NCBI GenBank assembly: GCA_048571215.1
Contig: CP182352.1
Span: forward strand, 1,216,001 to 1,280,000
Direction of reading: 5' to 3'
Origin: Halarcobacter sp.
GTDB lineage: Bacteria; Campylobacterota; Campylobacteria; Campylobacterales; Arcobacteraceae
DNA length: 64,000 bases
How positions within the stretch are numbered: the stretch's first letter is position 1; every line of letters begins with the position of its first letter. Position numbers and translations under genes: made by a program. A model generated the notes under the pieces. It worked only from the letters and a program-made list of their open reading frames with translations, made no database searches and was not told where the DNA came from. This document shows positions 43,417 to 57,002 of the stretch, piece after piece.

Positions 43417-43977
43417 TTAAATAAACTTATGATTTGAGTATAAGTCTAGATTATAATTAAAAGCATCTAGGTAATCGATTTTAAAAAGAAAATCATTATA
43501 ATCTTTATTCATAAGCAAAGAGTGAAGCATTCTTATGGTACCTCCATGGGTACAGATTAATATTTTTTTGTTTTTAGGAAGTGAGCTTAGAAATTCTTTT
43601 ATTCTTTGTTCAAAAGACTCTAAAGACTCTTCACAAATATATGAATACCAAGTATTTATATTTTCTAAATACTCTTGTTTATAATCATCATTTTGCTCTA
43701 CTTCCTCAAAAGATTTTCCCTCTATATTTTTTTTGAATTTCATCTCTCTTAATCTATTATCACAAATATATTCATCACTTATATGTTTTACAGTATCTAC
43801 ACAACGCTTCAAATCTGAAGTATAAATTAAATCGAAGTTCTGTTTAGAAAGCAACTCTTCAATCTTTGAATGTTCAAACAACTGCATATCCAAACCAATA
43901 TCACTATCATAACCTATATATCTCTTTTGATAATTTTCAGCTACAGCTGCGTGTCTTAATAGAGTAATTTTAGACAT
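43417..43977 (-). CDS. cobC: Histidine phosphatase (alpha-ribazole/adenosylcobamide-phosphate phosphatase)
   Basis: LLRHA, SDLKRC and THGG; directly after cobS. Confidence 0.8.
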   Translation of the reverse strand: MSKITLLRHAAVAENYQKRYIGYDSDIGLDMQLFEHSKIEELLSKQNFDLIYTSDLKRCVDTVKHISDEYICDNRLREMKFKKNIEGKSFEEVEQNDDYKQEYLENINTWYSYICEESLESFEQRIKEFLSSLPKNKKILICTHGGTIRMLHSLLMNKDYNDFLFKIDYLDAFNYNLDLYSNHKFI

Positions 43978-44713
43978 AAAAACAAACTCCTAAAGCTAAA
44001 ACTATCTCAATAGTTTCTAAAATAAATCCTAAGACATCTCCATTTAAAAAACCTAAAGCTTTTTTCAAAAAAGTTGTAATAAACAAAGCAAATAAAAATG
44101 ATAAAGGGATAAAAATAAGAAAACTAAAATTGGTAAGTAAAAAAACCAAAAAACCAAAAAGTATAATAGAAATTAAAAAACTCTTTGGCTTAAAACTATC
44201 TGCCATCATTGTTACAAATGGGGATTTAAACTTAGAAAAATAGATTGTAAACTGAACACTTAACCTACTTATTATCAATATAGCTACAAGTTCTAATAAA
44301 TAGTTATGATATAAAAGATAAGAAAATCCAGCTATTTTTAAAACTACAAAGATAATTGAGTATAAAACTCCTATTGCACCAACTGTTGGCTCTTTTATGA
44401 TCTTATAGGCATCTTTGCCACTATGTTTTGCATATATTGCATCTACCACATCAAGTATTGCCTCTGTATGTATAAAACCATAAAGGATAAAATAAACACA
44501 AGTAGCAATAATAGCAGCCAATATTGGGATTGAATCAAGTAGTGAGTAAAGAAGTATTGTAAAACTTCCTAAAACTAAACCAACAAGTGGCAAGAAAAAA
44601 ACTGTATAGTTTAAAACCTCTTTTCTTGATACCTCATCATCTTTTTTAAAACTTACAGGAAGGATAGAAAAGTAACTAAATACAAATTTTAGCCCAAGAA
44701 TTATATTATTCAT
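43970..44713 (-). CDS. cobS: Adenosylcobinamide-GDP ribazoletransferase
   Basis: GFIHTEAILDVVD, IIKEPTVGA and GFLNGDVLG; multi-TM. Confidence 0.9.
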   Translation of the reverse strand: MNNIILGLKFVFSYFSILPVSFKKDDEVSRKEVLNYTVFFLPLVGLVLGSFTILLYSLLDSIPILAAIIATCVYFILYGFIHTEAILDVVDAIYAKHSGKDAYKIIKEPTVGAIGVLYSIIFVVLKIAGFSYLLYHNYLLELVAILIISRLSVQFTIYFSKFKSPFVTMMADSFKPKSFLISIILFGFLVFLLTNFSFLIFIPLSFLFALFITTFLKKALGFLNGDVLGFILETIEIVLALGVCFYV

Positions 44714-46103
44714 AAATACTCTTTTTTATAGTTTCTATATCAATTCTCTTTTTTAATTGTGAGATAAAACTATTTATAGTTTTTTGTTTATACTCTTCAA
44801 AATCAAAACCTTGATAGTTTTTATTAATGGCTTTAAAAAGTTTATTTCGTAAACTATCATTACCAAAAATTGCATGGGCAAAAGTTCCTTTGATATTTTT
44901 GTTTTCAAAGTATAAAGGGTATTTTGAAGAGTTACCGTGATGTATCTCAAAGCCATTTACTTTACAATCAAAGATTTCATACTCTTTTTTCTCTAAAATT
45001 TTCTTTTTTTCAAAGACTATCATATCATCTATAAAAGCAAACCCCTCTTCTGCTGTAGGAGTTTCATTTTCTAGGGCATACTTATCATCTAAAGAGTTAA
45101 AAAGCATCTCATAACCACCACAAATACCAAAAATCTCTTTTTTGAACTCTTTAATATTTTTAAAAAGTCCTGTTTTTTTAAGCCATAGTAAATCTTTGAT
45201 TACAAGTTTAGACCCTGGTAAAATAACCATATCATATTTGTCTAAAGGGATATTTGACTCAATAAACTCTAGGTTTATATTATCATCTGATACAAGTGGT
45301 TCAAAATCGTTGAAATTACTCATATATGGATATGAGATTACTCCCACATTTATGATTGCTTTTTCTTTGTTTTGAATATAGTTTTTTAAGCTTTGTGAAT
45401 CTTCAAAGCCAAAATTAAAGGGTGTATATGGAAGCACACCTAAAACTGGAATTTTAAACTCCTCTTGGATAATCCTAACACCCTCATCAAAAAGTGTTAA
45501 ATCCCCACGAAACTTGTTTACAATTACACCTATTACATTTTCTCTTAACTTTTTAGGTAGTAGATTATATACTCCATAAATAGAAGCAAAAACTCCACCT
45601 TTTTCTATATCTGCAATAAGTATGATTTTTGTATTGTATTCATCTGCTATAAAGATATTTGAAAGGTCTTTATCCATAAGATTAAGCTCAACAGGGCTTC
45701 CAGCTCCTTCACAAACAACAACATCATACTTTGAATCAAGATAATCAAAACATCTTTTAACAGCTGGTTTAAGTAGATCTAAATCCCTATAATATTCCCT
45801 GACATCTTTATTTGTTACAACCTTACCTTCAACTATAAGAGAAGCTGCACTACCACGACCCGATTTTAATAATACTGGGTTTAGGTGATATGAGGTTTTT
45901 ACTCCTAAAATCCCAGCTTGAAAATACTGTGCAACTGCAATCTCACTTTTATCATCACACACAAAGGCATTGTTTGAAACATTTTGTGCTTTAAAAGGAG
46001 CCACACTTAAGCCCATATCTTGGATTATTTTTGCTATTACAAAAGTAAGGGTTGATTTTCCTGCATCTGAGCTAGTTCCAAATATTGAGATATTATTATT
46101 CAT
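44706..46103 (-). CDS. cobQ: Cobyric acid synthase
   Basis: GTSSDAGKS, PFKAQN, EGAGSPVELNL and GICGGY. Confidence 0.95.
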   Translation of the reverse strand: MNNNISIFGTSSDAGKSTLTFVIAKIIQDMGLSVAPFKAQNVSNNAFVCDDKSEIAVAQYFQAGILGVKTSYHLNPVLLKSGRGSAASLIVEGKVVTNKDVREYYRDLDLLKPAVKRCFDYLDSKYDVVVCEGAGSPVELNLMDKDLSNIFIADEYNTKIILIADIEKGGVFASIYGVYNLLPKKLRENVIGVIVNKFRGDLTLFDEGVRIIQEEFKIPVLGVLPYTPFNFGFEDSQSLKNYIQNKEKAIINVGVISYPYMSNFNDFEPLVSDDNINLEFIESNIPLDKYDMVILPGSKLVIKDLLWLKKTGLFKNIKEFKKEIFGICGGYEMLFNSLDDKYALENETPTAEEGFAFIDDMIVFEKKKILEKKEYEIFDCKVNGFEIHHGNSSKYPLYFENKNIKGTFAHAIFGNDSLRNKLFKAINKNYQGFDFEEYKQKTINSFISQLKKRIDIETIKKSIYE

Positions 46104-46119
46104 TTACTATACTTCCTAT

Positions 46120-46818
46120 TTAATTTATAATTGATTTGATATTTTTTTGAATAATAGTTCTACCATTTAAAGCGATTTTCTCAAACTCTTTACTTTGGGG
46201 TTCTATTTTTTCTAACTCTAAAATATATTTTTTCTCATCAAGTTTATTTAAAGAAGTATTTAAAATCTCTAAATCATCAAATGTTATAAATCTTGAAAAA
46301 ATGAGTTTTTCAATAATACTTTTATCAAAAGATATAGCCATAGCAATATCAAAAATATCTCTTGTAAGATTGTCTTGTTTTCTGTATTTTATTTTTTTGG
46401 CGATTATATCTTCTACTGACTCATAAAAAAGTTCATAATCAATATCCAATTCTGCATCTTTTATAGGTTTATTTATAATTGCTTCATTGAGTAAGAAATC
46501 AACTTTTATATCATCTTTTGTTTTAAGTTGTATATGATGATTCATCCCATCAAATCTATACTCATTGTTATCAAATATTTTTGTCTCATCAATGTACCAT
46601 TTTGGATTTAAAAAATCAAAAAGTTGAGATTCTGTTATAAATATATCTATATCAAAAGATTTTCTATGATTAAAATGAAACATAGCCAAGGCTGTTCCTC
46701 CACCAAATACCCACCAGTTTTTTATAACTGATTGCTTTTCAATAGGAGCTAATAATTCATAATAAACACTATTTAATGTATTTATTTGCTGTTCAAAATT
46801 ATTTAAGTAGCCATTCAT
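46120..46818 (-). CDS. AbiEii/AbiGii-family nucleotidyltransferase toxin
   Basis: FGGGTAL, HRKSFDIDIF, IAKK and RDIFD. Confidence 0.88.
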   Translation of the reverse strand: MNGYLNNFEQQINTLNSVYYELLAPIEKQSVIKNWWVFGGGTALAMFHFNHRKSFDIDIFITESQLFDFLNPKWYIDETKIFDNNEYRFDGMNHHIQLKTKDDIKVDFLLNEAIINKPIKDAELDIDYELFYESVEDIIAKKIKYRKQDNLTRDIFDIAMAISFDKSIIEKLIFSRFITFDDLEILNTSLNKLDEKKYILELEKIEPQSKEFEKIALNGRTIIQKNIKSIIN

Positions 46819-47365
46819 ATTGTGAACTTACCTTTGTATTGTATTGATTTATATAATACTCATAAAGTTTTTTTAGATTTGATTTTTCAATATCATAAAC
46901 TTCACAATACTTAATAACATCCTCATAACTTACTTCATTAAAAAGTGTGATAATAGCATATTGATATTTTATATCTGTAGTTGCTGTTGAAAAAATTGTA
47001 TATAAATCATCTAAATCATAATGAAGTCGCTTATCGCTTATTGAGTTATTTATTGTTGATAAAATCCATTTTGCAGTAGATATTTTTTTCTCTTCTTTAA
47101 AAAGTTCATGATAAGGCTTTATAAAATCATACTCTTCTTTATCCAAAAACAGGTCATATTCAACTTGTTTCATTAGTATAAATTCAGGTTTTAACCCAAA
47201 AAATTTAGCAAACTTTTTTGCCGTATGTATTGTAAAACCTCTTTTCTTTTGATAAAGTTCACTGATTGTTTTTTTGCCTATTTGTAAAACTTCACAAAGC
47301 TTATCTTGAGTTATTTTATTTGGTTCTATATATTTTTCTTTTAAAAAATCTATTGGTGCTAACAT
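46799..47365 (-). CDS. HigA-like XRE-HTH antitoxin with extra C-terminal domain
   Basis: PIDFLKEKYIEPNKITQDKLCEVLQI...AKKFAKFFG...MKQVEYDL matches the HigA/VapI pattern; about 100 extra residues; overlaps the toxin gene by 20 bp. Confidence 0.8.
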   Translation of the reverse strand: MLAPIDFLKEKYIEPNKITQDKLCEVLQIGKKTISELYQKKRGFTIHTAKKFAKFFGLKPEFILMKQVEYDLFLDKEEYDFIKPYHELFKEEKKISTAKWILSTINNSISDKRLHYDLDDLYTIFSTATTDIKYQYAIITLFNEVSYEDVIKYCEVYDIEKSNLKKLYEYYINQYNTKVSSQYEWLLK

Positions 47366-47446: not shown

Positions 47447-47938
47447 CTACTTCAATCTATTTGTAAGTCCAAATTTAACTTCATACACCTCATTACAGAT
47501 TTTGGCTAATTTTTGCCCTATTATTCCAGTTAAATCTACAAATCTTCTACTATCCTTGTCAAAAGGGATTACCCCTGTGGTTACTTCATTAAGTACAAAA
47601 ACTATATTACAATCAATTTGTTCTAATTGTTCCAATTGTTTTAAAAGTTCCTCTTCTTTTTTTTCTATATTATTAAATATCCACATAGAGATACAATCAA
47701 TCAAATAGGTTTCATTCTCTTTTATCACTTTAGTTAAATCTTTTGACTCTTCTATAGTTTCGAAGTTATCTTCCCTGCTCTTTTTGTGTTTATCCACTCT
47801 TTTATGCATCTCTTTATCATCATAAGAGTTATCATAGGTTGCTATATAAAAAGGCTTGTTTGATGCAAGGCTTAAGGCTTTTACCTCCGCAAGGTTTGAT
47901 TTACCACTTTTTTGTCCACCAAAATATAAGACTTTCAT
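47447..47938 (-). CDS. cobU: Adenosylcobinamide kinase / guanylyltransferase
   Basis: GGQKSGKS, YIAT, HxxxR, IDC and NEV. Confidence 0.92.
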   Translation of the reverse strand: MKVLYFGGQKSGKSNLAEVKALSLASNKPFYIATYDNSYDDKEMHKRVDKHKKSREDNFETIEESKDLTKVIKENETYLIDCISMWIFNNIEKKEEELLKQLEQLEQIDCNIVFVLNEVTTGVIPFDKDSRRFVDLTGIIGQKLAKICNEVYEVKFGLTNRLK

Positions 47939-47940
47939 AT

Positions 47941-48999
47941 TTATCCCAAAAAGCTTTCTATTTTTTCTGTTATGGTTTTTTTATCTTGTCCATTTAAAAA
48001 CCCATAAGCTAAAGCAGCCCCTGCTCCAACCCCCTCTTTTGCTTCTCCACTATCATAAAGTTTTAGTGCAGGATGGCTTGATAAAGCAAAATCAAAATCA
48101 GCATAATAAGCATTTAGTTTAAAATCAAGCATCTCCAAAAGAGCTTTGATATCACTATTTTTATCATCATATACCCACTTTGTAGTACATAAAGATAAGT
48201 TAGAAGTTTCAAACTCTGCTTCCATAGTTTTTAATACGGCATTTACTATTAGAAGGATACAAGCCATTTGAGTTCCACCTGCTAAGATCACTTTTAGTTT
48301 ATTGTTTAAGCCTAAAATAACTCCAGCATAAAATACAAGCATATTATCTGCAACTTTACTAAGTACTGAAAATAGATCATCCTCTTTTGAAATATTTTCC
48401 AAGGCTTTGTTGATAGTTGTATCTCTAATACTATTTGGAACCTCTTTAAATGAACTACTAAACATCTCTTTACACTTATATCCCAATGCCAAAGCAGTTG
48501 CAGTTGCTGTTGTTGTTCCACTTGGAACTGATTCTGCTAAGATTAGATAATCATCTTTTAACTCATAAGCTTGTCCAAATGCTAATCCTTTTTGAAACAC
48601 ATCCATTGCGTCTATGTTTGCACCCTCAACAATTGATTTTGATGGTTCTATTTGCATATTGTGTATTTTGAAGTATTCTAGTTTTGGTTTTACTTCTATA
48701 CCTAAATCAAGGAGTTCTATATTTGAAAAAGGGTTTAGAAGATGAACTGCTCTTGTTATAAGTGCAGGAGTAGGAACACCTTTTGGTGTTTTTGCAACAT
48801 CCTCTAAACTTCTTACCTCTCCACTACATAAAAACTCACTATCTAGTGTGGGGGTTAGATATATTTGACCTGGAATTCCAGCTTGTGTAATCCCTTCTAT
48901 ATTGGCAGTTGCAGTATTGCTCATAGCTAAAATATATGTTGCTTTTTTACCTCGCAAACTTTCAACAAAATCTATATTTCCAATTATACTTTTTATCAT
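47941..48999 (-). CDS. cobT: Lower-ligand phosphoribosyltransferase, archaeal/cyanobacterial-type CobT
   Basis: GITQAG, TPALITRA, ESVPSGTTTA, AGGTQM and KEGVGAG. Confidence 0.85.
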   Translation of the reverse strand: MIKSIIGNIDFVESLRGKKATYILAMSNTATANIEGITQAGIPGQIYLTPTLDSEFLCSGEVRSLEDVAKTPKGVPTPALITRAVHLLNPFSNIELLDLGIEVKPKLEYFKIHNMQIEPSKSIVEGANIDAMDVFQKGLAFGQAYELKDDYLILAESVPSGTTTATATALALGYKCKEMFSSSFKEVPNSIRDTTINKALENISKEDDLFSVLSKVADNMLVFYAGVILGLNNKLKVILAGGTQMACILLIVNAVLKTMEAEFETSNLSLCTTKWVYDDKNSDIKALLEMLDFKLNAYYADFDFALSSHPALKLYDSGEAKEGVGAGAALAYGFLNGQDKKTITEKIESFLG

Positions 49000-49032: not shown

Positions 49033-49887
49033 TTAAACTGTTTTATCTATTATTTGGAATTTCTTTAAATACTCGCTGTAATCTTTTTTAGTATTTTTAT
49101 ATATTCTTTGTAAAGAGTAATACAAACAAGAATATAAAAGATAATCCTTTATTCTTTTCTTTTCTATACTCTTGTTTGTATATTTGTTATAAGTATTAAG
49201 TATATATTCAAAATAGCAGATATTGAATCTCATATTTTCAAAACACCAACTTATAACAACAACTGCAATATCAAAGAGTATATTACCAAAACAAGACTGT
49301 GTAAAGTCATATACACCACTAAGTTTTCCATCTATAAACTTTACATTATCAGGGAAAAGATCACCATGAATTAAAGCTTCGCTTTTAGTATCTATATCTT
49401 TTACTTTTAAATACTTTTGTGTTATTTGCTTTTTTAGGCTACTGTTTGATAAAGAAAAAAGCATCGTTTCAAAGTTTTGTTTTGAGTAAACATCTTTTTT
49501 AGTAATTTTAATATCTTTTATAGAATGCAAACTTACTAAAAAAAGTGTTATTTGTTTTAGATGATTTTTTGTAATACTTTGTATAACATCCCCTTCAATA
49601 TATGAAAGAAGTGTTATTGGTCTATTGTTGTAAAGGTTTATTTTTTTTGATAGTACATTTGGAACATTTAAATTTTTTATTGAATTTAAAATCTCTATTT
49701 GATTTTCTACATCTTTTATTGATGCATCTTCATATAGCTTAAATATATATTTTTTTGTATTAGAAATTCCAATATATGTTGTATCACTAATACCTGATGA
49801 GGTTCCCACAATAGAATTAAAGCTTACATTTTCATCTACAATTAAGTTATTAATTTCATTTAATGTGAGTCTAGTTAATACACCCAA
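49033..49887 (-). CDS. APH-fold kinase resembling type II homoserine kinase, first gene of the cobT-cobU operon
   Basis: GISDTTY, IHGDLFPDNV, GVYDF and FDIA...SW. Confidence 0.8.
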   Translation of the reverse strand: MGVLTRLTLNEINNLIVDENVSFNSIVGTSSGISDTTYIGISNTKKYIFKLYEDASIKDVENQIEILNSIKNLNVPNVLSKKINLYNNRPITLLSYIEGDVIQSITKNHLKQITLFLVSLHSIKDIKITKKDVYSKQNFETMLFSLSNSSLKKQITQKYLKVKDIDTKSEALIHGDLFPDNVKFIDGKLSGVYDFTQSCFGNILFDIAVVVISWCFENMRFNICYFEYILNTYNKYTNKSIEKKRIKDYLLYSCLYYSLQRIYKNTKKDYSEYLKKFQIIDKTV

Positions 49888-50012
49888 GAATTAAAACCTT
49901 CTTTTTTAGTATTATTATATCGAAACAAGCTATATAGAAGTGTTAAAAGCAACTACTATGTGAAGATTTATTATAATTTGCAATTCAAAATAAAATAAAG
50001 GTTTATAAGAGA

Positions 50013-50762
50013 ATGCAAATAGCTATTTTATCTGATATAGATTCAAATGTTTATGCACTGCAAGAGCTAATAAAAGATATCAAAAGTAGAAATATTGAAG
50101 TGGTTTTAAACCTTGGAGATATGTTTTATGGTCCAATTGCACCAAGAGCTACTTATGATTTGATAAGAGAGAGTAAGTTTATAAATATCTGTGGAGATCA
50201 AGATAGAAAAATATTAGAGGCAAGTTTAGACCAACTAGAAAAAAATCCTACTTTGAAATATGTATACGAAGACTTGGGTGAAGAGGTTTTATACTGGATT
50301 CAAGATTTACAGTTTGAAAAGATAATTGGTGGTACATATTATATGATTCATGGAACTTATTTTGATGATACCCAATATCTATTAGAGGATGTTTCATCTG
50401 GTGAAGTTAAACTAAGAAGTGATGAAGAGATTATAAGATTAACAGACAATATTGAAACACCTTTTATTTTTTGTGGACATTCTCACCTACCAAGAGTTCA
50501 TAAACTAAATACCGGACAAATAGTAATAAACCCAGGTTCTGTAGGACTACAAGCATATGAAGATGAACTTCCAACTAAACATAAAATGGAAAACCATACG
50601 CCTGATGCTTCGTATACAATTCTTACAGTTGAAGATAATCAATACAGTATTGAGCAAGTAAGAGTTGCCTATGATTTTGAAAAAGCTGCAAAAAAAGCAG
50701 AAGAAAATGGAAGAGTTGATTGGGCTTATGCACTAAGAACGGGTAGTTTAAAAAATAAATGA
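50013..50762 (+). CDS. Calcineurin-like metallophosphoesterase with altered motifs
   Basis: SDIDSN, LGD, GDQD, HG, GHSH and NPGSVG; its stop overlaps the cobD start (ATGA). Confidence 0.8.
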   Translation: MQIAILSDIDSNVYALQELIKDIKSRNIEVVLNLGDMFYGPIAPRATYDLIRESKFINICGDQDRKILEASLDQLEKNPTLKYVYEDLGEEVLYWIQDLQFEKIIGGTYYMIHGTYFDDTQYLLEDVSSGEVKLRSDEEIIRLTDNIETPFIFCGHSHLPRVHKLNTGQIVINPGSVGLQAYEDELPTKHKMENHTPDASYTILTVEDNQYSIEQVRVAYDFEKAAKKAEENGRVDWAYALRTGSLKNK

Positions 50763-51769
50763 AAAAATTTGAACATGGGGGAGATATAAACTCTTTTGCA
50801 AAAGAATTAGAGTGTAAGTTAGAAGAGATAATTGATTTGTCTTCAAATATAAACTTCTTAAAACCAAAACTTGATATTGATTTTAATAAACTCTCAATAT
50901 CATCATACCCAAATTATGAAAAGTTATATAAAACAATAGCAAAGCATTATAAAGTAAAAAAATCAAACCTAGAGCTTTTTAATGGTGCTAGCAGCGCTAT
51001 TTTCTCTTTATTTGATGCTTTGGGTCTAAAAGAGTGTTTTATCTATTCTCCTGCTTATTTAGAGTATAAAAAAGCAGCAAGAGTTTTTAACTATAAAATA
51101 AATTTAATTGATAGATTTGAAAATAAAAATCAAAAAATCAAAAAAGCTTCACTTATAGTATTTATAAACCCATCAACTCCTGATGGGAAATACTATAACT
51201 TGGAAGAGTTGTTGAAATTATGGATAAAAAAAGAGTGTACTATTTTAGTTGATGAAAGCTTTTTGGAGTTTACAAATAAAAAATCAATAACAAAATATAT
51301 AAATGAATATGACAAACTATATATTCTAAAATCTATGACAAAATTCTACTCTTGTGCTGGGGTTAGAGTTGGTACAATAATCTCTTCAAAAAACAATATC
51401 AAAAAACTAAGAGAAAAAGAGCCTTTATGGAAACTTTCTACTTATGATATGAATTATATACTTGAAGTTCTAAAAGATAAAAAATTTGTAAATAAAACTA
51501 TCGAAAAAAACAATAAAAATAAAGCCTATTTGCAAGAGGTTTTATCTTCATATAGCTTCATAGAAAAAGTATATAAAAGTGATGCAAATTTTTTACTTTT
51601 GAAGTTAAAAAATATTGATAGTAAAACTTTACAAAATCATCTAAAAAAATATAAAATCATGGTAAGAGATTGTTCAAATTTTGATTTTTTAGATTCTTCT
51701 TTTGTAAGAGTTGCTGTTAAAAACAAAGCCTCAATCAGAGCTTTAAAATATGCTTTGGATAGGATTTAA
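50759..51769 (+). CDS. cobD: L-threonine(serine)-O-phosphate decarboxylase
   Basis: HGG start, DLSSNIN, NPSTPDG, VDESF and PLP lysine in SMTKFY. Confidence 0.88.
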   Translation: MKKFEHGGDINSFAKELECKLEEIIDLSSNINFLKPKLDIDFNKLSISSYPNYEKLYKTIAKHYKVKKSNLELFNGASSAIFSLFDALGLKECFIYSPAYLEYKKAARVFNYKINLIDRFENKNQKIKKASLIVFINPSTPDGKYYNLEELLKLWIKKECTILVDESFLEFTNKKSITKYINEYDKLYILKSMTKFYSCAGVRVGTIISSKNNIKKLREKEPLWKLSTYDMNYILEVLKDKKFVNKTIEKNNKNKAYLQEVLSSYSFIEKVYKSDANFLLLKLKNIDSKTLQNHLKKYKIMVRDCSNFDFLDSSFVRVAVKNKASIRALKYALDRI

Positions 51770-51771
51770 AA

Positions 51772-52659
51772 TTGTATTTTTCTCTTGCATTAATTGCTTA
51801 TATTATAGACTATTTTTTTGCAGAATTTGAGAAAATAAAGTATCTAAAACATCCTATAATTTATATGGGAGATTTTATTAAATGGTTTGAAAACAGATTC
51901 TACTTGGATAATGTTTTTAGAGGGTTTATACTTACACTAAGTTTACTTTGTATAGTGTTTACTATTACTTTTGCTTTAACATATGTGGATAATATATTTT
52001 TTCAAGGTTTTCTTTGTTCTTTTGCTATTTCATCAAATATGCTTTATAAAAGTGTACAAAATGTAATACAATCAGATAATCCAAAATATGCAATCTCTAT
52101 GCTAGTAAGTCGTGATACAAAAGATATGAATGACAGCGATATAAATAAAGCTTGTATAGAAACTTATGCTGAAAATTTAAGTGATGGTGTTATCGCTCCA
52201 CTTTTTTATATACTTTGTTTTGGTCTTATTGGAGCTTTTATTTATAAAGCAATAAATACTTTAGATTCTATGGTTGGATATAGAAATAAAAGGTATGAAA
52301 AGTTTGGAAAATTTTCTGCAAAACTTGATGATGTAGCAAATTATATTCCAGCTAGAATAACAGCACTTTTAATTGCCCTACTTTTCTTTTCAAAAAAAGC
52401 TTTTTTACAGTTTCAAAAATATGGTAAAAAACATGAAAGTTTAAATGCCGGATTACCAATATCAGCTATGGCTCTAAGTTTAAATATAAAACTTGGGGGT
52501 CCAACTTCATATTTTGGGAAAATTAAAGATAAACCTTACTTTGGTGATGGAAAAGTGAATATTGAAAAAAGAGATGTAAAAAAAGCCTTAGATATAAAAC
52601 CAAGGCTCGATATATTTATTTTGTTAGTTTTATTTTTGTTTACTATTTTTTCTTATTAG
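51772..52659 (+). CDS. cbiB: Adenosylcobinamide-phosphate synthase
   Basis: HPI, VSRDT, AENLSDGVIAP and NTLDSMVGY. Confidence 0.95.
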   Translation: MYFSLALIAYIIDYFFAEFEKIKYLKHPIIYMGDFIKWFENRFYLDNVFRGFILTLSLLCIVFTITFALTYVDNIFFQGFLCSFAISSNMLYKSVQNVIQSDNPKYAISMLVSRDTKDMNDSDINKACIETYAENLSDGVIAPLFYILCFGLIGAFIYKAINTLDSMVGYRNKRYEKFGKFSAKLDDVANYIPARITALLIALLFFSKKAFLQFQKYGKKHESLNAGLPISAMALSLNIKLGGPTSYFGKIKDKPYFGDGKVNIEKRDVKKALDIKPRLDIFILLVLFLFTIFSY

Positions 52660-53592
52660 TAAATAAACAAATACAGGAGCACCAATAAATGAGGTTACAA
52701 CCCCAATAGGCAAGGTTGAAGCAGTATTTAGATTTCTAGCTATTAAATCAGAAACTACAAGAAATACACCTCCATAAAAAAACACAGGAAAAATTAATTT
52801 CTCTGCACTTTTTTTATATATGATTCTCATTGTATGAGGGATAATAAGTCCTATAAAGCCAATAGGACCTACAAAACTAATACTGATACCAACAGCAATG
52901 GAAACAAAGATAAGCAGTGTTAGGTTGGTTTTATTGACATTTAGACCTTTTAAAAATGCCATATCATTTGAAATCAATAGTAATTTTATATTTTGTTTAT
53001 TTTTTAAAACTATAAATAAAAAGATAAGCGCAGTTATAAAAACAACTATAGGGGTATTAAACCCTACAATATCTAAACTTCCAAGGGTAAATCTTATAAT
53101 TGAATAATTCTCTTGTAAATTACTTAGATAAAAAACCAACATCAAAGCTGAAGAATAAAAAAATGACAAGGCGATACCTATAAGTAAAATAGAGTTTGTA
53201 GAGTTTAAAATTTGGTTTTTATTTATAATCCTTGAGATAAGGTATAAAATCATTATAGTAAAAAAAGAGCCTAAAATACCAGAGATATATAAAGCAACTG
53301 TGGGCAAAAAGACTATTGAAACAGCCGTAAAAAGTGTTGTACCGCTGGCAATTCCAAGAGTATAAGGGGTTATCAAAATATTTTTAAAAATAGTTTGAAA
53401 GATTAAGCCACTAAGACTTAAAATACCACCAACAAAAAATGCTAAAATTATTCTAGGAACCCTTAAATCCCAAAATATCATATGTGAGGTTGTAGAACTA
53501 TCAAAGATATCTGAAACTTCTATTGAGTTCTCTCCTATAAAAGGTGAAAGTACTATTATAGATAAAAATAAAAGATATAGTAAATACTTCAT
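52630..53592 (-). CDS. btuC: FecCD/BtuC-type ABC permease
   Basis: LRVPR, PYTLGIASG and GPIGFIGLIIPH; cob context. Confidence 0.85.
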   Translation of the reverse strand: MKYLLYLLFLSIIVLSPFIGENSIEVSDIFDSSTTSHMIFWDLRVPRIILAFFVGGILSLSGLIFQTIFKNILITPYTLGIASGTTLFTAVSIVFLPTVALYISGILGSFFTIMILYLISRIINKNQILNSTNSILLIGIALSFFYSSALMLVFYLSNLQENYSIIRFTLGSLDIVGFNTPIVVFITALIFLFIVLKNKQNIKLLLISNDMAFLKGLNVNKTNLTLLIFVSIAVGISISFVGPIGFIGLIIPHTMRIIYKKSAEKLIFPVFFYGGVFLVVSDLIARNLNTASTLPIGVVTSFIGAPVFVYLLIRKNSKQK

Positions 53593-54287
53593 AGGTTTAC
53601 CACCAAGTGACCATTTATTATTTGTAATGAATTATTGTATCTTTTAGTCAGGTTTTCTTTTTCAAAAAACTCTTCACACTCTCCAAAAAACTCGATTTTT
53701 CCATCTTGTAGATATAAGATTTTATATTTTAGATGATATGCAAGATCAAGGTTGTGTGTTATGATGATTTTTTGTTGTAGAAGGTTTGATTTAAAAAGTT
53801 CATAAACCTCTTTTACCCTTGATATATCCATATTTGCAGTTAATTCATCAAAGATGCTTATCTTTGCATTGTGTATCATACTAGAAGCTAATAACAATAG
53901 TTGTTTTTCACCACTACTTAATTGGATACAGCTTCTATTTTTTAAATGTTTTATTTTTGTATGTTCTATAACTGCATCAATTTTTTTATAATCTATTGAT
54001 TCAATAAATGAAAGCTCTAAAAATTCATATACAGTAAGGTATTCATCAAAAACTTCTAGTTTTGGTGGAATATAGTTTATATATTTTACCCTTTGTTGAT
54101 TATTTAACTCTGAGATGTTTTGATTAAATAAAAAAACTTCTTTATTTGATAAAAGGTTTGATAAAACCTTTGCAAGTGTTGATTTACCAGCTCCATTTGA
54201 TCCTAAGATTATTAGGTTTTCATCCTCTTTTAAATGGAAGCTTATATTTTTTAAAATCAAATTAGAGTAATTAGTTATTTTTAACAT
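53589..54287 (-). CDS. btuD: ABC ATPase of the corrinoid importer
   Basis: GSNGAGKST, LSSGEKQ, FDE and ITH. Confidence 0.82.
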   Translation of the reverse strand: MLKITNYSNLILKNISFHLKEDENLIILGSNGAGKSTLAKVLSNLLSNKEVFLFNQNISELNNQQRVKYINYIPPKLEVFDEYLTVYEFLELSFIESIDYKKIDAVIEHTKIKHLKNRSCIQLSSGEKQLLLLASSMIHNAKISIFDELTANMDISRVKEVYELFKSNLLQQKIIITHNLDLAYHLKYKILYLQDGKIEFFGECEEFFEKENLTKRYNNSLQIINGHLVVNL

Positions 54288-55101
54288 CTATTAGTATCTT
54301 TTTAAAATCGTTTATAAAGTTTACCACTCTATTGCTTGGAATTCCCGCATATTCTTTGTCTATGATATATATATCCTTGTTTTTACTTGCATTAATTGGC
54401 AGTTTATACCAGATATTTTTTAATTGTTCTTTTGAGATGTTTTCTTTGTTTATATATGGGGCTAATAAAACTATAACATCGGGATTCATATGTATAATTT
54501 TTTCTACATTTACAACAGGTTGTGCAAAATTATTTGCCATATATGCATTTGTATTACCTGAGGTTTTGATAATATCATTAAAATATAGGTTATTGCCTGC
54601 AATATAAATAGTTGAATTCAAATCAAGTTTGGGACTAATTACAACCATAAATTTTTTATTGTTTATTATATTTTTTAGTTGTTTTAAGGAATTGTCTATT
54701 TGATTTATTAATTCTGTTGCTTTTTTTTCTTTCTTTAGGATATCTCCAATTTTTTTAATAGTTGTTTTTATAGAGTTTAGATTATCTGTTTTAAAACTGT
54801 AAAATTTTAGATTTAGTTTTTTTAAATTTTTTAGTATCTCTTCATCATAGTTTTGAGCTAAAACAATTGTTGGTTTGGCTAGAAGTATCTTTTCTAAAGA
54901 GATTGTAGAATATCCCCCTACTTTAGGTATAGTTTTTGATTCTTCAGGAAAATTACTATACATGGTATTTGCAACAATCTCTTTACCACTTCCCAAGGCA
55001 AAAACTATCTCATTTAATGAAGGGGAAAGAGTTACTATTCTTTCCCCTGCATAAAGGTTAAAACTAAAAAAAGATATAAGTATTACTAAAATTTTTTTCA
55101 T
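54271..55101 (-). CDS. btuF: Periplasmic corrinoid-binding protein
   Basis: RIVTLSPSLNE, LEKIL..KP and NPDVI. Confidence 0.85.
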   Translation of the reverse strand: MKKILVILISFFSFNLYAGERIVTLSPSLNEIVFALGSGKEIVANTMYSNFPEESKTIPKVGGYSTISLEKILLAKPTIVLAQNYDEEILKNLKKLNLKFYSFKTDNLNSIKTTIKKIGDILKKEKKATELINQIDNSLKQLKNIINNKKFMVVISPKLDLNSTIYIAGNNLYFNDIIKTSGNTNAYMANNFAQPVVNVEKIIHMNPDVIVLLAPYINKENISKEQLKNIWYKLPINASKNKDIYIIDKEYAGIPSNRVVNFINDFKKILIDVKNN

Positions 55102-57002
55102 TAGAATTTAATCTTTACTCCCGCGTAATATGTTCTTTCGAAGTTTACTGGATATATTGCATCATCTTTTATCCAAAGTCCATTTGTTTCATCAAATATA
55201 TTTTGAATTTTTGCAAAAAGTTCTATATTCTTATAGTTATAAGTTAAACTTAAATCTGTAGAGTTATAAGCTTCTTGTTTTTGTGTAAAGTTATTTGCAA
55301 AATCATTCTCTGCATAAGCACTACTTCTATAAGTGTGTGATAACAATGCCTCTAGTTTTTTATAAGTATATCCAAGATTCACTGTAAGATTATGTTTTGA
55401 TACCCCTGGTAAATCTTTGCCGTTATATGTTCCATTACCATCATCTTCATTATCTATCTTAGAGATGATATATGAATAGTTTAATGAAGTGTATAGATTG
55501 TCATTTAAAAGATATTTATCGTATAGTTCAATACCATATTTATGAGATTTATCAATATTTGTATTATATGAAGTTAAGTAATCGCCTGTATTATAATAAT
55601 AAATCTCATTTTTTAAATTACTTCTAAAAAGAGTTACTTTTAATTTGTTAGATTTTTGAATATTTGTATATCCAATATTATAATTATCTACTTTTGCAGG
55701 TTTTATAAAACCATTAAATGAACCATATGTAAAAAATCTATCGATATCTGGTGCTTGAAAAGATTTGTTATAGTTTGCAAAAATAGAGTTTGATTCATCA
55801 AATCTGTAGTTTAAACCTATATCGTAAGCATTTAAAGATAATTCATCATCTAGTCCTGTCCCACTTGTAGGAGCATATTTATATTCTACTTTCTCTTTTC
55901 TAGCACCTGCTGATAAAGTAGTTTTATTATTTAGATAGTATTCTATTGAAGTGAAAATAGCTTTGTTGTCTTTTGATGTTGTATCATATGAACCAAGTCT
56001 ATCTCCTATAAAAGAATCAACTCCAATTACCGCACTGTAATTATCTTTTTTAATATTTAATTTTGAGTTTATTGAACGATATTCATAATCTGATTGATAT
56101 CCTGACGAGTATCTACTTAATTTATCTTCATCAGAAAAATTAAAATTAAAGGAGTAGTTTTTGTTTATATTATATGTAAATCCAGCATCAGTTACATATG
56201 AATTAAAATATTGCTCCGTAAAAGATGAAGCTTGTGTTGGATTTTGATTGTATTGATCAAGTGTTAAAGAACCACCATATTTTATATTCATATTAGAATA
56301 ACTTCTTGCTGCTCTAATTTCTAGATTATTTGTTGGAAAGTATGTTATATCAAATTTCTTATTTCTATTATAATTGTTGTTTTTTTCTGTGTTATTTAGT
56401 TGTCTATCTCCATCACTTGATGTATAATCAATATAACCATTTATGATGAAGTTTTCATAGTTATAACCTAAACTAAGAGTTGTATTTTTTGTTCCATTAT
56501 TTCCAAAATATGTTTTTATGTAGTTGTCATTTTTTCCATTTGTTGTGATATTTATTGCACCTGCATTCGCACCATCACCATATTGTACAGAACCACTACC
56601 TTTAAGTATCTCTATTTTTTCAATAGAATCGATTGGAATTGCTGATAATAATTGTGTTTGCATATCAATATTATTTAGTTTTCTTCCATTTACTGTTATT
56701 ACTACATTTTGATATCCATCTCCAAGACCATAACCTCTTAAATCTATTTTTTGAGAAAAAGTATTACCATATGAAGGAGCAATATTTAAAGACGTTTGCG
56801 AATTTAGAAAGTCATATAAGTCTTTTGATTTAGCACTTTGTATCTCTTTTTTGGTATAAATCTCTGTTGCGTATGTTGTATTTTTTTCATCAGTTTTGAT
56901 TAAAGATGAAGTAATTGTTACAGATGATAGTTCATAAGAGTATAGATTTGTTGCTAAAAGAAGTGAAGCAACTACACTTGGGTATATTGTTTTATTTTCC
57001 AT
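55101..57002 (-). CDS. btuB: TonB-dependent receptor, probable corrinoid receptor
   Basis: Plug motifs (DLRG, IEKIEILKGSGSVQYG), terminal F; heads the btuFDC operon beside cob genes. Confidence 0.8.
   Translation of the reverse strand: MENKTIYPSVVASLLLATNLYSYELSSVTITSSLIKTDEKNTTYATEIYTKKEIQSAKSKDLYDFLNSQTSLNIAPSYGNTFSQKIDLRGYGLGDGYQNVVITVNGRKLNNIDMQTQLLSAIPIDSIEKIEILKGSGSVQYGDGANAGAINITTNGKNDNYIKTYFGNNGTKNTTLSLGYNYENFIINGYIDYTSSDGDRQLNNTEKNNNYNRNKKFDITYFPTNNLEIRAARSYSNMNIKYGGSLTLDQYNQNPTQASSFTEQYFNSYVTDAGFTYNINKNYSFNFNFSDEDKLSRYSSGYQSDYEYRSINSKLNIKKDNYSAVIGVDSFIGDRLGSYDTTSKDNKAIFTSIEYYLNNKTTLSAGARKEKVEYKYAPTSGTGLDDELSLNAYDIGLNYRFDESNSIFANYNKSFQAPDIDRFFTYGSFNGFIKPAKVDNYNIGYTNIQKSNKLKVTLFRSNLKNEIYYYNTGDYLTSYNTNIDKSHKYGIELYDKYLLNDNLYTSLNYSYIISKIDNEDDGNGTYNGKDLPGVSKHNLTVNLGYTYKKLEALLSHTYRSSAYAENDFANNFTQKQEAYNSTDLSLTYNYKNIELFAKIQNIFDETNGLWIKDDAIYPVNFERTYYAGVKIKF

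Follow-up and report, generated by a model that had tools for sequence, protein, structure and literature searches.

An APH-fold kinase of Campylobacterota as a candidate L-threonine kinase for the cobamide linker branch

PduX and BluE are GHMP-type kinases. Passages of three published reports describe threonine phosphate, the product of PduX or BluE, as the substrate of CobD (PMC7242693, PMC8123684, PMC6249242). According to part of a further report, most cobamide producers verified by experiment lack pduX (PMC6461909), and therefore the source of threonine phosphate constitutes a gap in B12 synthesis. Titles cited in PMC9986279 describe the CobD protein of Methanosarcina mazei (MM2060) as a bifunctional threonine kinase and decarboxylase, which places both activities in one chain. 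In addition, a 2016 article by Keller, known here by its title as cited in PMC6461909, attributes control of norcobamide synthesis to a CobD enzyme of the 6OUX type.

Here we describe a gene of Halarcobacter sp. whose product is a candidate L-threonine kinase for the same branch. It lies in a 64-kb stretch of DNA that was analysed as a whole (hereafter the window), at positions 49033 to 49887 on the minus strand, and encodes 284 amino acids. The open reading frame (ORF) is uninterrupted and begins with a TTG codon that has an AG-rich stretch approximately 9 nucleotides upstream; this start is supported by the homologues, which open with MG[VI] at the same position. The protein exceeds the Pfam cut-off for the APH/choline kinase superfamily (PF01636; 68.9 bits versus 23.2, E-value 7e-19), and it carries the motif HGDLFPDN at residues 174 to 181 followed by D194-F195. 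A previous reading of this DNA from its sequence alone had claimed an intact APH-type kinase gene on the strength of these two motifs, which is borne out. Residues K50, H174, D176, N181 and D194 are each conserved in 99 to 100% of the 163 sequences of the kinase clade defined below. No GHMP domain was matched in the protein by Pfam profiles, and its APH fold thus sets it apart from PduX and BluE, which have the GHMP fold. What the protein has in common with these two enzymes, as portrayed in passages of PMC7242693 and PMC6249242, is the proposed reaction, the place in the pathway and the linkage to cobD. The profile of APH(3') aminoglycoside phosphotransferases (NF033068) gives a score of 25.7 against a cut-off of 205, which does not place the protein in that family. 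Its closest named homologues are from Halarcobacter, and members of the kinase family carry only the names ‘phosphotransferase’ or ‘homoserine kinase type II’ in their source records. One RNA run contained short contigs that match portions of the locus, including one that spans the end of the kinase gene and the start of cobT, which by themselves demonstrate neither a transcript nor expression.

The families that match the protein best are those of type II homoserine kinases (type II ThrB), for which it scores 124 versus a cut-off of 271 and 78 versus 256 (PRK05231 and TIGR00938); genuine type II ThrB proteins such as P0129 and P0139 pass the family cut-offs. A structural model of the kinase (pLDDT 93.8) was compared with solved structures by using Foldseek and VIA-align. 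The closest is the type II ThrB 2PPQ (TM 0.82, Z 29.9, rmsd 2.4 over 275 residues), followed at Z values between 21 and 24.5 by N-acetylhexosamine, choline, ethanolamine and aminopropanol kinases, the last three of which fall between 21 and 22.5. The kinase and type II ThrB share the APH fold, the HxDLFxDN and DF motifs, a W-C pair, a C-lobe arginine and a similar N-terminus, but proteins of the kinase clade are shorter (median 268 versus 314 amino acids).

Phylogenetic analysis also separates the two groups. A FastTree phylogeny was built from 253 sequences, comprising the 146 library matches after removal of duplicates and of proteins shorter than 240 amino acids, together with locus proteins of at least 230 amino acids. 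The kinase clade forms one group of 163 of these sequences with a support of 0.89. The same split is recovered with an SH-aLRT value of 100 in a quick 72-row IQ-TREE analysis that was run without bootstrap or outgroup and in which the long row P0128 switches sides. Five positions that are 90 to 100% conserved in type II ThrB (N35, N37, T50, Y196 and R256) are changed in the clade. For example, the ATP-binding position occupied by threonine in 97% of type II ThrB proteins is K50 in 99% of clade members, aspartate replaces the asparagine at position 35, and both the tyrosine after the DF motif and the arginine at 256 are absent. Other type II ThrB positions are kept (F178, D180, W214, C215 and R261), and of the C-lobe arginine pair of type II ThrB, R261 is found in 96% of the 163 clade sequences. 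Judging from the fold, the changed and the kept positions are predicted to line the acceptor pocket, and the loss of arginine 256 and of the tyrosine could mean that the substrate lacks a carboxylate. According to these sequence comparisons, the kinase family is not part of the type II homoserine kinases but a lineage sister to them.

Within the window, the kinase gene is the first of a same-strand run on the minus strand. After a gap of 33 nucleotides it is followed by cobT of the archaeal/cyanobacterial type (47941 to 48999; TIGR00303, over cut-off), the cobinamide kinase/guanylyltransferase gene cobU (47447 to 47938; PF02283), the cobyric acid synthase gene cobQ/cbiP (44706 to 46103; TIGR00313, over cut-off), the cobamide synthase gene cobS (43970 to 44713; PF02654) and a gene for a CobC-like histidine phosphatase (43417 to 43977; PF00300, with TIGR03162 as best match, under cut-off). 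The claim that the kinase heads a cobT-cobU-cobQ-cobS-cobC operon is therefore correct as to its leading position, but cobU and cobQ are split by two further genes on the same strand that resemble those of toxin-antitoxin systems. One encodes a HigA-like helix-turn-helix protein (46799 to 47365; profile match) that is absent between cobU and cobQ in the relatives L059, L060 and L085, and the other an AbiEii-like nucleotidyltransferase (46120 to 46818; PF08843). This pair (46120 to 47365) has a GC content of approximately 24% versus 28.5% for the genome, and different inserts are found in the same operon of other relatives.

On the plus strand, cobD and cbiB do run divergently from the kinase gene, as the sequence-only reading had stated, but its picture of a shared divergent promoter facing cobD needs two amendments. 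No promoter was identified in the 125-nucleotide gap between the divergent genes (49888 to 50012), which holds 6 sigma-70-like sites versus 9.8 expected by chance, and the first divergent gene is one for a calcineurin-like metallophosphoesterase of 249 amino acids (50013 to 50762; profile match). It is followed by cobD (50759 to 51769), which encodes an L-threonine-O-phosphate decarboxylase with the HGG start and the PLP lysine motif (TIGR01140 is the best match, at 228 bits under a cut-off of 291), and by the adenosylcobinamide-phosphate synthase gene cbiB (51772 to 52659; TIGR00380, over cut-off). The metallophosphoesterase gene overlaps the start of cobD and also precedes cobD in the genus genomes L039, L052, L053, L059, L085 and L098; its product is possibly a cobamide-related phosphatase. 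Beyond cbiB, on the minus strand, lie btuB-F-D-C-like corrinoid uptake genes (52630 to 57002) for a TonB receptor, a binding protein, an ATPase and a FecCD permease, and btu genes stay adjacent to cob genes in many relatives. A cobalamin riboswitch was sought throughout the 64-kb window, where no Rfam match was obtained.

The genome that contains the window (G000) is a single contig of 3.61 Mb and is 100% complete. Searches of it by tblastn with the proteins of relatives did not find cbiA, cbiC, cbiD, cbiET, cbiG, cbiK or bluB, and profile searches found neither CbiD nor CbiZ. Because ring-building genes are missing, the organism only salvages corrinoids, and the locus is a salvage-and-completion unit. 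The genome encodes two B12-binding domains, one in glutamate mutase and one in an ORF of 1165 amino acids whose size suggests MetH. A GHMP-type thrB resides elsewhere in the genome (277 bits versus a cut-off of 168), as it does, over cut-off, in all 39 other carriers tested among the approximately 82 found. The kinase as a sole or redundant thrB was rejected on these grounds, and a separate homoserine kinase gene, which the previous reading had proposed as a check, is present. The GHMP domain PF00288 is carried in G000 by the thrB and ispE products only. With no third GHMP kinase, and given that PduX and BluE have this domain, both are taken as absent.

To compare the distribution of the kinase with that of the pathway, carriers among 151 genomes of the same taxonomic family were identified by an alignment scan and cbiB by a CbiB profile, and the two lists were crossed by hand. 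A query of the genome contigs with a single protein gave no kinase matches, whereas the alignment query did. Among these genomes, 63 carry the kinase and 104 carry cbiB; 61 have both, 2 the kinase only, 43 cbiB only and 45 neither. The two carriers that lack cbiB are metagenome-assembled genomes (MAGs) of 330 to 370 contigs, one of which has the kinase directly before cobT-cobU. Among 301 genomes of the phylum, the kinase was found in 26 and cbiB over cut-off in 28, with 25 having both, 1 the kinase only, 3 cbiB only and 272 neither. The kinase of one double positive (G413) is not a member of the clade, and two families account for 214 of the double negatives. In the sole carrier of this set that lacks cbiB (G160), cobD adjoins the kinase near a contig end. 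Since the genomes are related, the counts in both sets are not independent trials.

The gene neighbourhood was compared as well. A cob or btu gene lies within 3 kb of the kinase in 71 of the 84 loci of distinct clade sequences, whereas this holds for 0 of 32 loci from outside the clade; in the other 13 clade loci, some of them on short contigs, no cob gene is found within that distance. Outside the taxonomic family, cob genes surround the kinase in 17 of 19 loci and in many different gene orders. The linkage of homologues to cob genes that the earlier account had put forward as a check is thus tight across Campylobacterota. In 82 loci, the next gene downstream is most commonly cobD (23), followed by cobT (19), with bluB in 11; bluB is the commonest upstream gene (24), and cobD resides no more than four genes away in 56. 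No transporter other than btu recurs beside the kinase in the loci of relatives. A tie to ring synthesis was considered and rejected, in that the kinase occurs in 32 of 46 genomes with cbiD and also in 29 of the 58 cbiB genomes without it, and G000 itself lacks the ring genes.

The kinase is also found joined to CobD. In a Spirochaetia MAG, a single ORF of 634 amino acids (L112/P0205) encodes an APH kinase domain and, immediately after it, a CobD domain in which the HGG start and the PLP lysine are retained. Full-length fusions of 637 (P0099) and 658 (P0214) amino acids come from separate assemblies, and P0206 is a partial near-copy. In each full-length fusion the APH domain extends from residue 1 to approximately 296 and the CobD domain begins at approximately 300 in the same frame. 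The three are 74 to 84% identical to each other, and their halves are 29 to 32% and 45 to 47% identical to the window proteins. The fused kinase domain groups inside the kinase clade in both the FastTree and the quick IQ-TREE analyses. A profile search for longer forms of the kinase returned one weak, unrelated match, and a metagenome scan for fusions recovered the L112 sequence again and nothing else. An assembly artefact is unlikely because P0099 and P0214 lie on other contigs than L112 and differ from it to this extent, and the fusions probably stem from one evolutionary event. Like MM2060, these proteins hold both parts in one chain, but the kinase part of MM2060 is presumably not a separate APH domain. 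Through linkage, co-occurrence and fusion, the family therefore exhibits the association with cobD and cbiB that is expected of a PduX- or BluE-like kinase.

The association is not universal. Among the 104 cbiB genomes of the taxonomic family, the 43 that lack the kinase include 14 with cbiD, and at the bluB-cbiL position where relatives have the kinase, G071, G105 and G132 lack it while keeping the ring genes. Degenerate CobD enzymes do not explain these cases, since the CobD motifs are intact in the 19 loci that were fetched. Of 31 such genomes tested, 27 show the usual pair of GHMP matches and no more, three others add a third match in frames of 342 to 456 amino acids, and one has a single match. 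With CobD motifs kept and mostly two GHMP matches, these organisms must obtain the CobD substrate by another route, be it a promiscuous activity of ThrB or of CobD, the use of serine phosphate or a different source. The kinase thus appears to be helpful rather than indispensable, because cobD and cbiB are retained in many relatives that lack it.

Several additional observations concern other genes of the pathway. In loci L040 to L048 and L054 to L058, a second, kinase-less layout of the cob operon resides beside htrA and ilvD and comprises cobT, marC, cobU, cobS, cobD, a transglutaminase-like gene, cobQ, cbiB and a gene that we call c8. The latter encodes a cysteine-rich protein of 141 amino acids in G000 (C1:3543063-3543482; L079:9064-9489), with a weak match to PF04071 (E-value 0.047) and approximately nine invariant cysteines. 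It is present in 136 of the 151 genomes, often inside cob operons, and several loci have it immediately ahead of the kinase or behind cbiB. Its confidently predicted model (pLDDT 90.9) resembles no PDB entry (best Z 3.0), and it is a candidate for a metal-binding cobamide function. As a stand-in for the kinase, c8 was rejected because kinase carriers are among the 136 genomes. A second CobD-like gene of G000 (C1:3540972-3541913; L079:6973-7917), which lacks the HGG start and has arginine in place of the PLP lysine, sits where other relatives keep a cob operon and is probably a decayed or repurposed copy. Corrinoid adenosyltransferases of PF02572 were found in 0 of the 151 genomes and those of PF01923 in 2, both weak matches in frames of 684 to 685 amino acids, despite cbiB in 104 genomes, cbiD in 46 and glutamate mutase in some, including G000. 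This is a second gap in the pathway, for which the kinase was rejected as a general answer, given that G071 and G132, in which glutamate mutase is encoded next to the cob cluster, lack the kinase. At L004:876-2184, a gene for a PnuC-type transporter precedes one for a second APH-fold kinase whose best related family is ThiK (under cut-off), which is the usual thiamine salvage pattern.

The simplest reading of the locus is that the kinase makes threonine phosphate for CobD, because it descends from, or is sister to, a hydroxy-amino-acid kinase, follows cobD and cbiB among genomes, occurs in the apparent absence of PduX and is in some cases fused to CobD. We infer kinase activity, threonine as the substrate and flux to CobD on these grounds, and assign this reading a probability of approximately 0.6. 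That the protein belongs to the late cobamide pathway in some role is highly probable. According to this proposal, a monofunctional, ATP- and Mg-dependent small-molecule kinase of the APH fold would have been recruited to the late cobamide pathway of free-living Campylobacterota, where it would phosphorylate the side-chain hydroxyl of L-threonine. CobD would then decarboxylate L-threonine-O-phosphate to (R)-1-aminopropan-2-ol phosphate, which CbiB would join to the cobyric acid made by CobQ from imported corrinoid, and CobU, CobT, CobS and CobC would complete the cobamide for MetH and glutamate mutase. Accounting for the family as a non-orthologous replacement of PduX, as the sequence-only reading did, agrees with the separate GHMP thrB, the linkage to cob genes and the CobD fusion; its serine branch does not fare as well (see below).

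An unlikely alternative is that the enzyme phosphorylates external (R)-1-aminopropan-2-ol or ethanolamine and supplies CbiB in parallel to CobD. APH-fold kinases of choline, ethanolamine and aminopropanol are known (4R77, 2QG7 and 6EF6; Z 21 to 22.4), and with arginine 256 lost, the aspartate that replaces asparagine 35 could bind an amine. The mycobacterial aminopropanol kinase 6EF6 shares with our protein the APH fold and, under this alternative, a small hydroxy-amine substrate, but the two are only 13% identical, and 6EF6 serves microcompartment catabolism whereas the kinase resides in a cob cluster. In structure, 6EF6 (Z 21.0) ranks level with the choline and ethanolamine kinases. 2PPQ is much closer, and 6EF6 is not among the 58 sequence matches of the profile. 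Fusion to CobD fits consecutive steps better than a bypass. In addition, no Tdh or Kbl is found over cut-off in G000, so that free aminopropanol has no evident internal source, and btu is the only recurring transporter.

Less probable again is a kinase acting on the lower ligand or elsewhere in the late pathway, such as an alpha-ribazole kinase that works with BluB and CobT. The frequency of bluB upstream (24/82) and of cobT downstream (19/82) would suit such a function, and sugar kinases have the same fold (4OCJ, Z 24.5). However, G000 has the kinase but no bluB, G071, G105 and G132 have bluB-cobT but no kinase, and the fusion partner is CobD rather than CobT or BluB.

Very doubtful is the proposal that the enzyme is a serine kinase, or a threonine/serine kinase that favours serine, leading to an ethanolamine-linked norcobamide. 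Its sequence is compatible with serine, and norcobamides do occur in Campylobacterota, as stated in part of PMC6389850. The comparison with Sulfurospirillum multivorans, a member of the same phylum whose CobD (SMUL_1544; 6OUX) performs the same downstream step as the window CobD, points the other way. Genome G216 encodes a CobD of 392 amino acids that is letter-for-letter 6OUX from residue 2, and the kinase family was not detected in it even at an E-value of 0.01. This enzyme, which we take to prefer serine phosphate, represents a distant CobD type with 23% identity to the nearest CobD of the reference set, and the window CobD is nearer to that of Salmonella (90 bits, including the HGG start) than to 6OUX (66 bits, without its N-terminus). 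The known serine route therefore does without the kinase family, and the serine/norcobamide branch proposed earlier finds no support here. Serine phosphate is, furthermore, an intermediate of serine synthesis, and a dedicated serine kinase would add little.

Least probable is that the protein is still a homoserine kinase, either as a redundant second ThrB or as a source of O-phosphohomoserine that CobD turns into a 3-aminopropanol linker: its best families, its best structure and some source labels point to homoserine, but its scores are far below both cut-offs, it sits on a separate branch with five conserved positions changed, it resides in the cob clusters of genomes equipped with a GHMP thrB, and a redundant thrB would not track cbiB. 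We likewise consider it improbable that the kinase and CobD together build a non-standard linker, namely 3-aminopropanol from phosphohomoserine or ethanolamine from phosphoserine via a Salmonella-type CobD. If this were true, the same salvaged ring would give rise to cobamides of different chemistry in marine and vent Campylobacterota, depending on whether they carry the kinase.

Returning to the threonine kinase reading, the family is dedicated to cob loci, is distinct from type II ThrB by family membership and from PduX by fold, and probably works like PduX. Searches of titles and abstract openings in the full-text literature, a scope that leaves most subscription papers outside it, the original papers on PduX, BluE and norcobamides among them, returned no APH-fold kinase in cobamide synthesis, and an earlier mention may exist in other literature. 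The clade seems largely confined to Campylobacterota, and for this reason the gap in threonine phosphate supply would be closed for one phylum only. For that phylum, the family offers a soluble, single-domain candidate of a different fold. The fusions to CobD found in nature are amenable to assay as single proteins, and the cobamides of closely related organisms that possess or lack the kinase can be compared. The assignment would correct the label ‘homoserine kinase type II’ now attached to some of its members, and the enzyme could serve in engineered B12 pathways.
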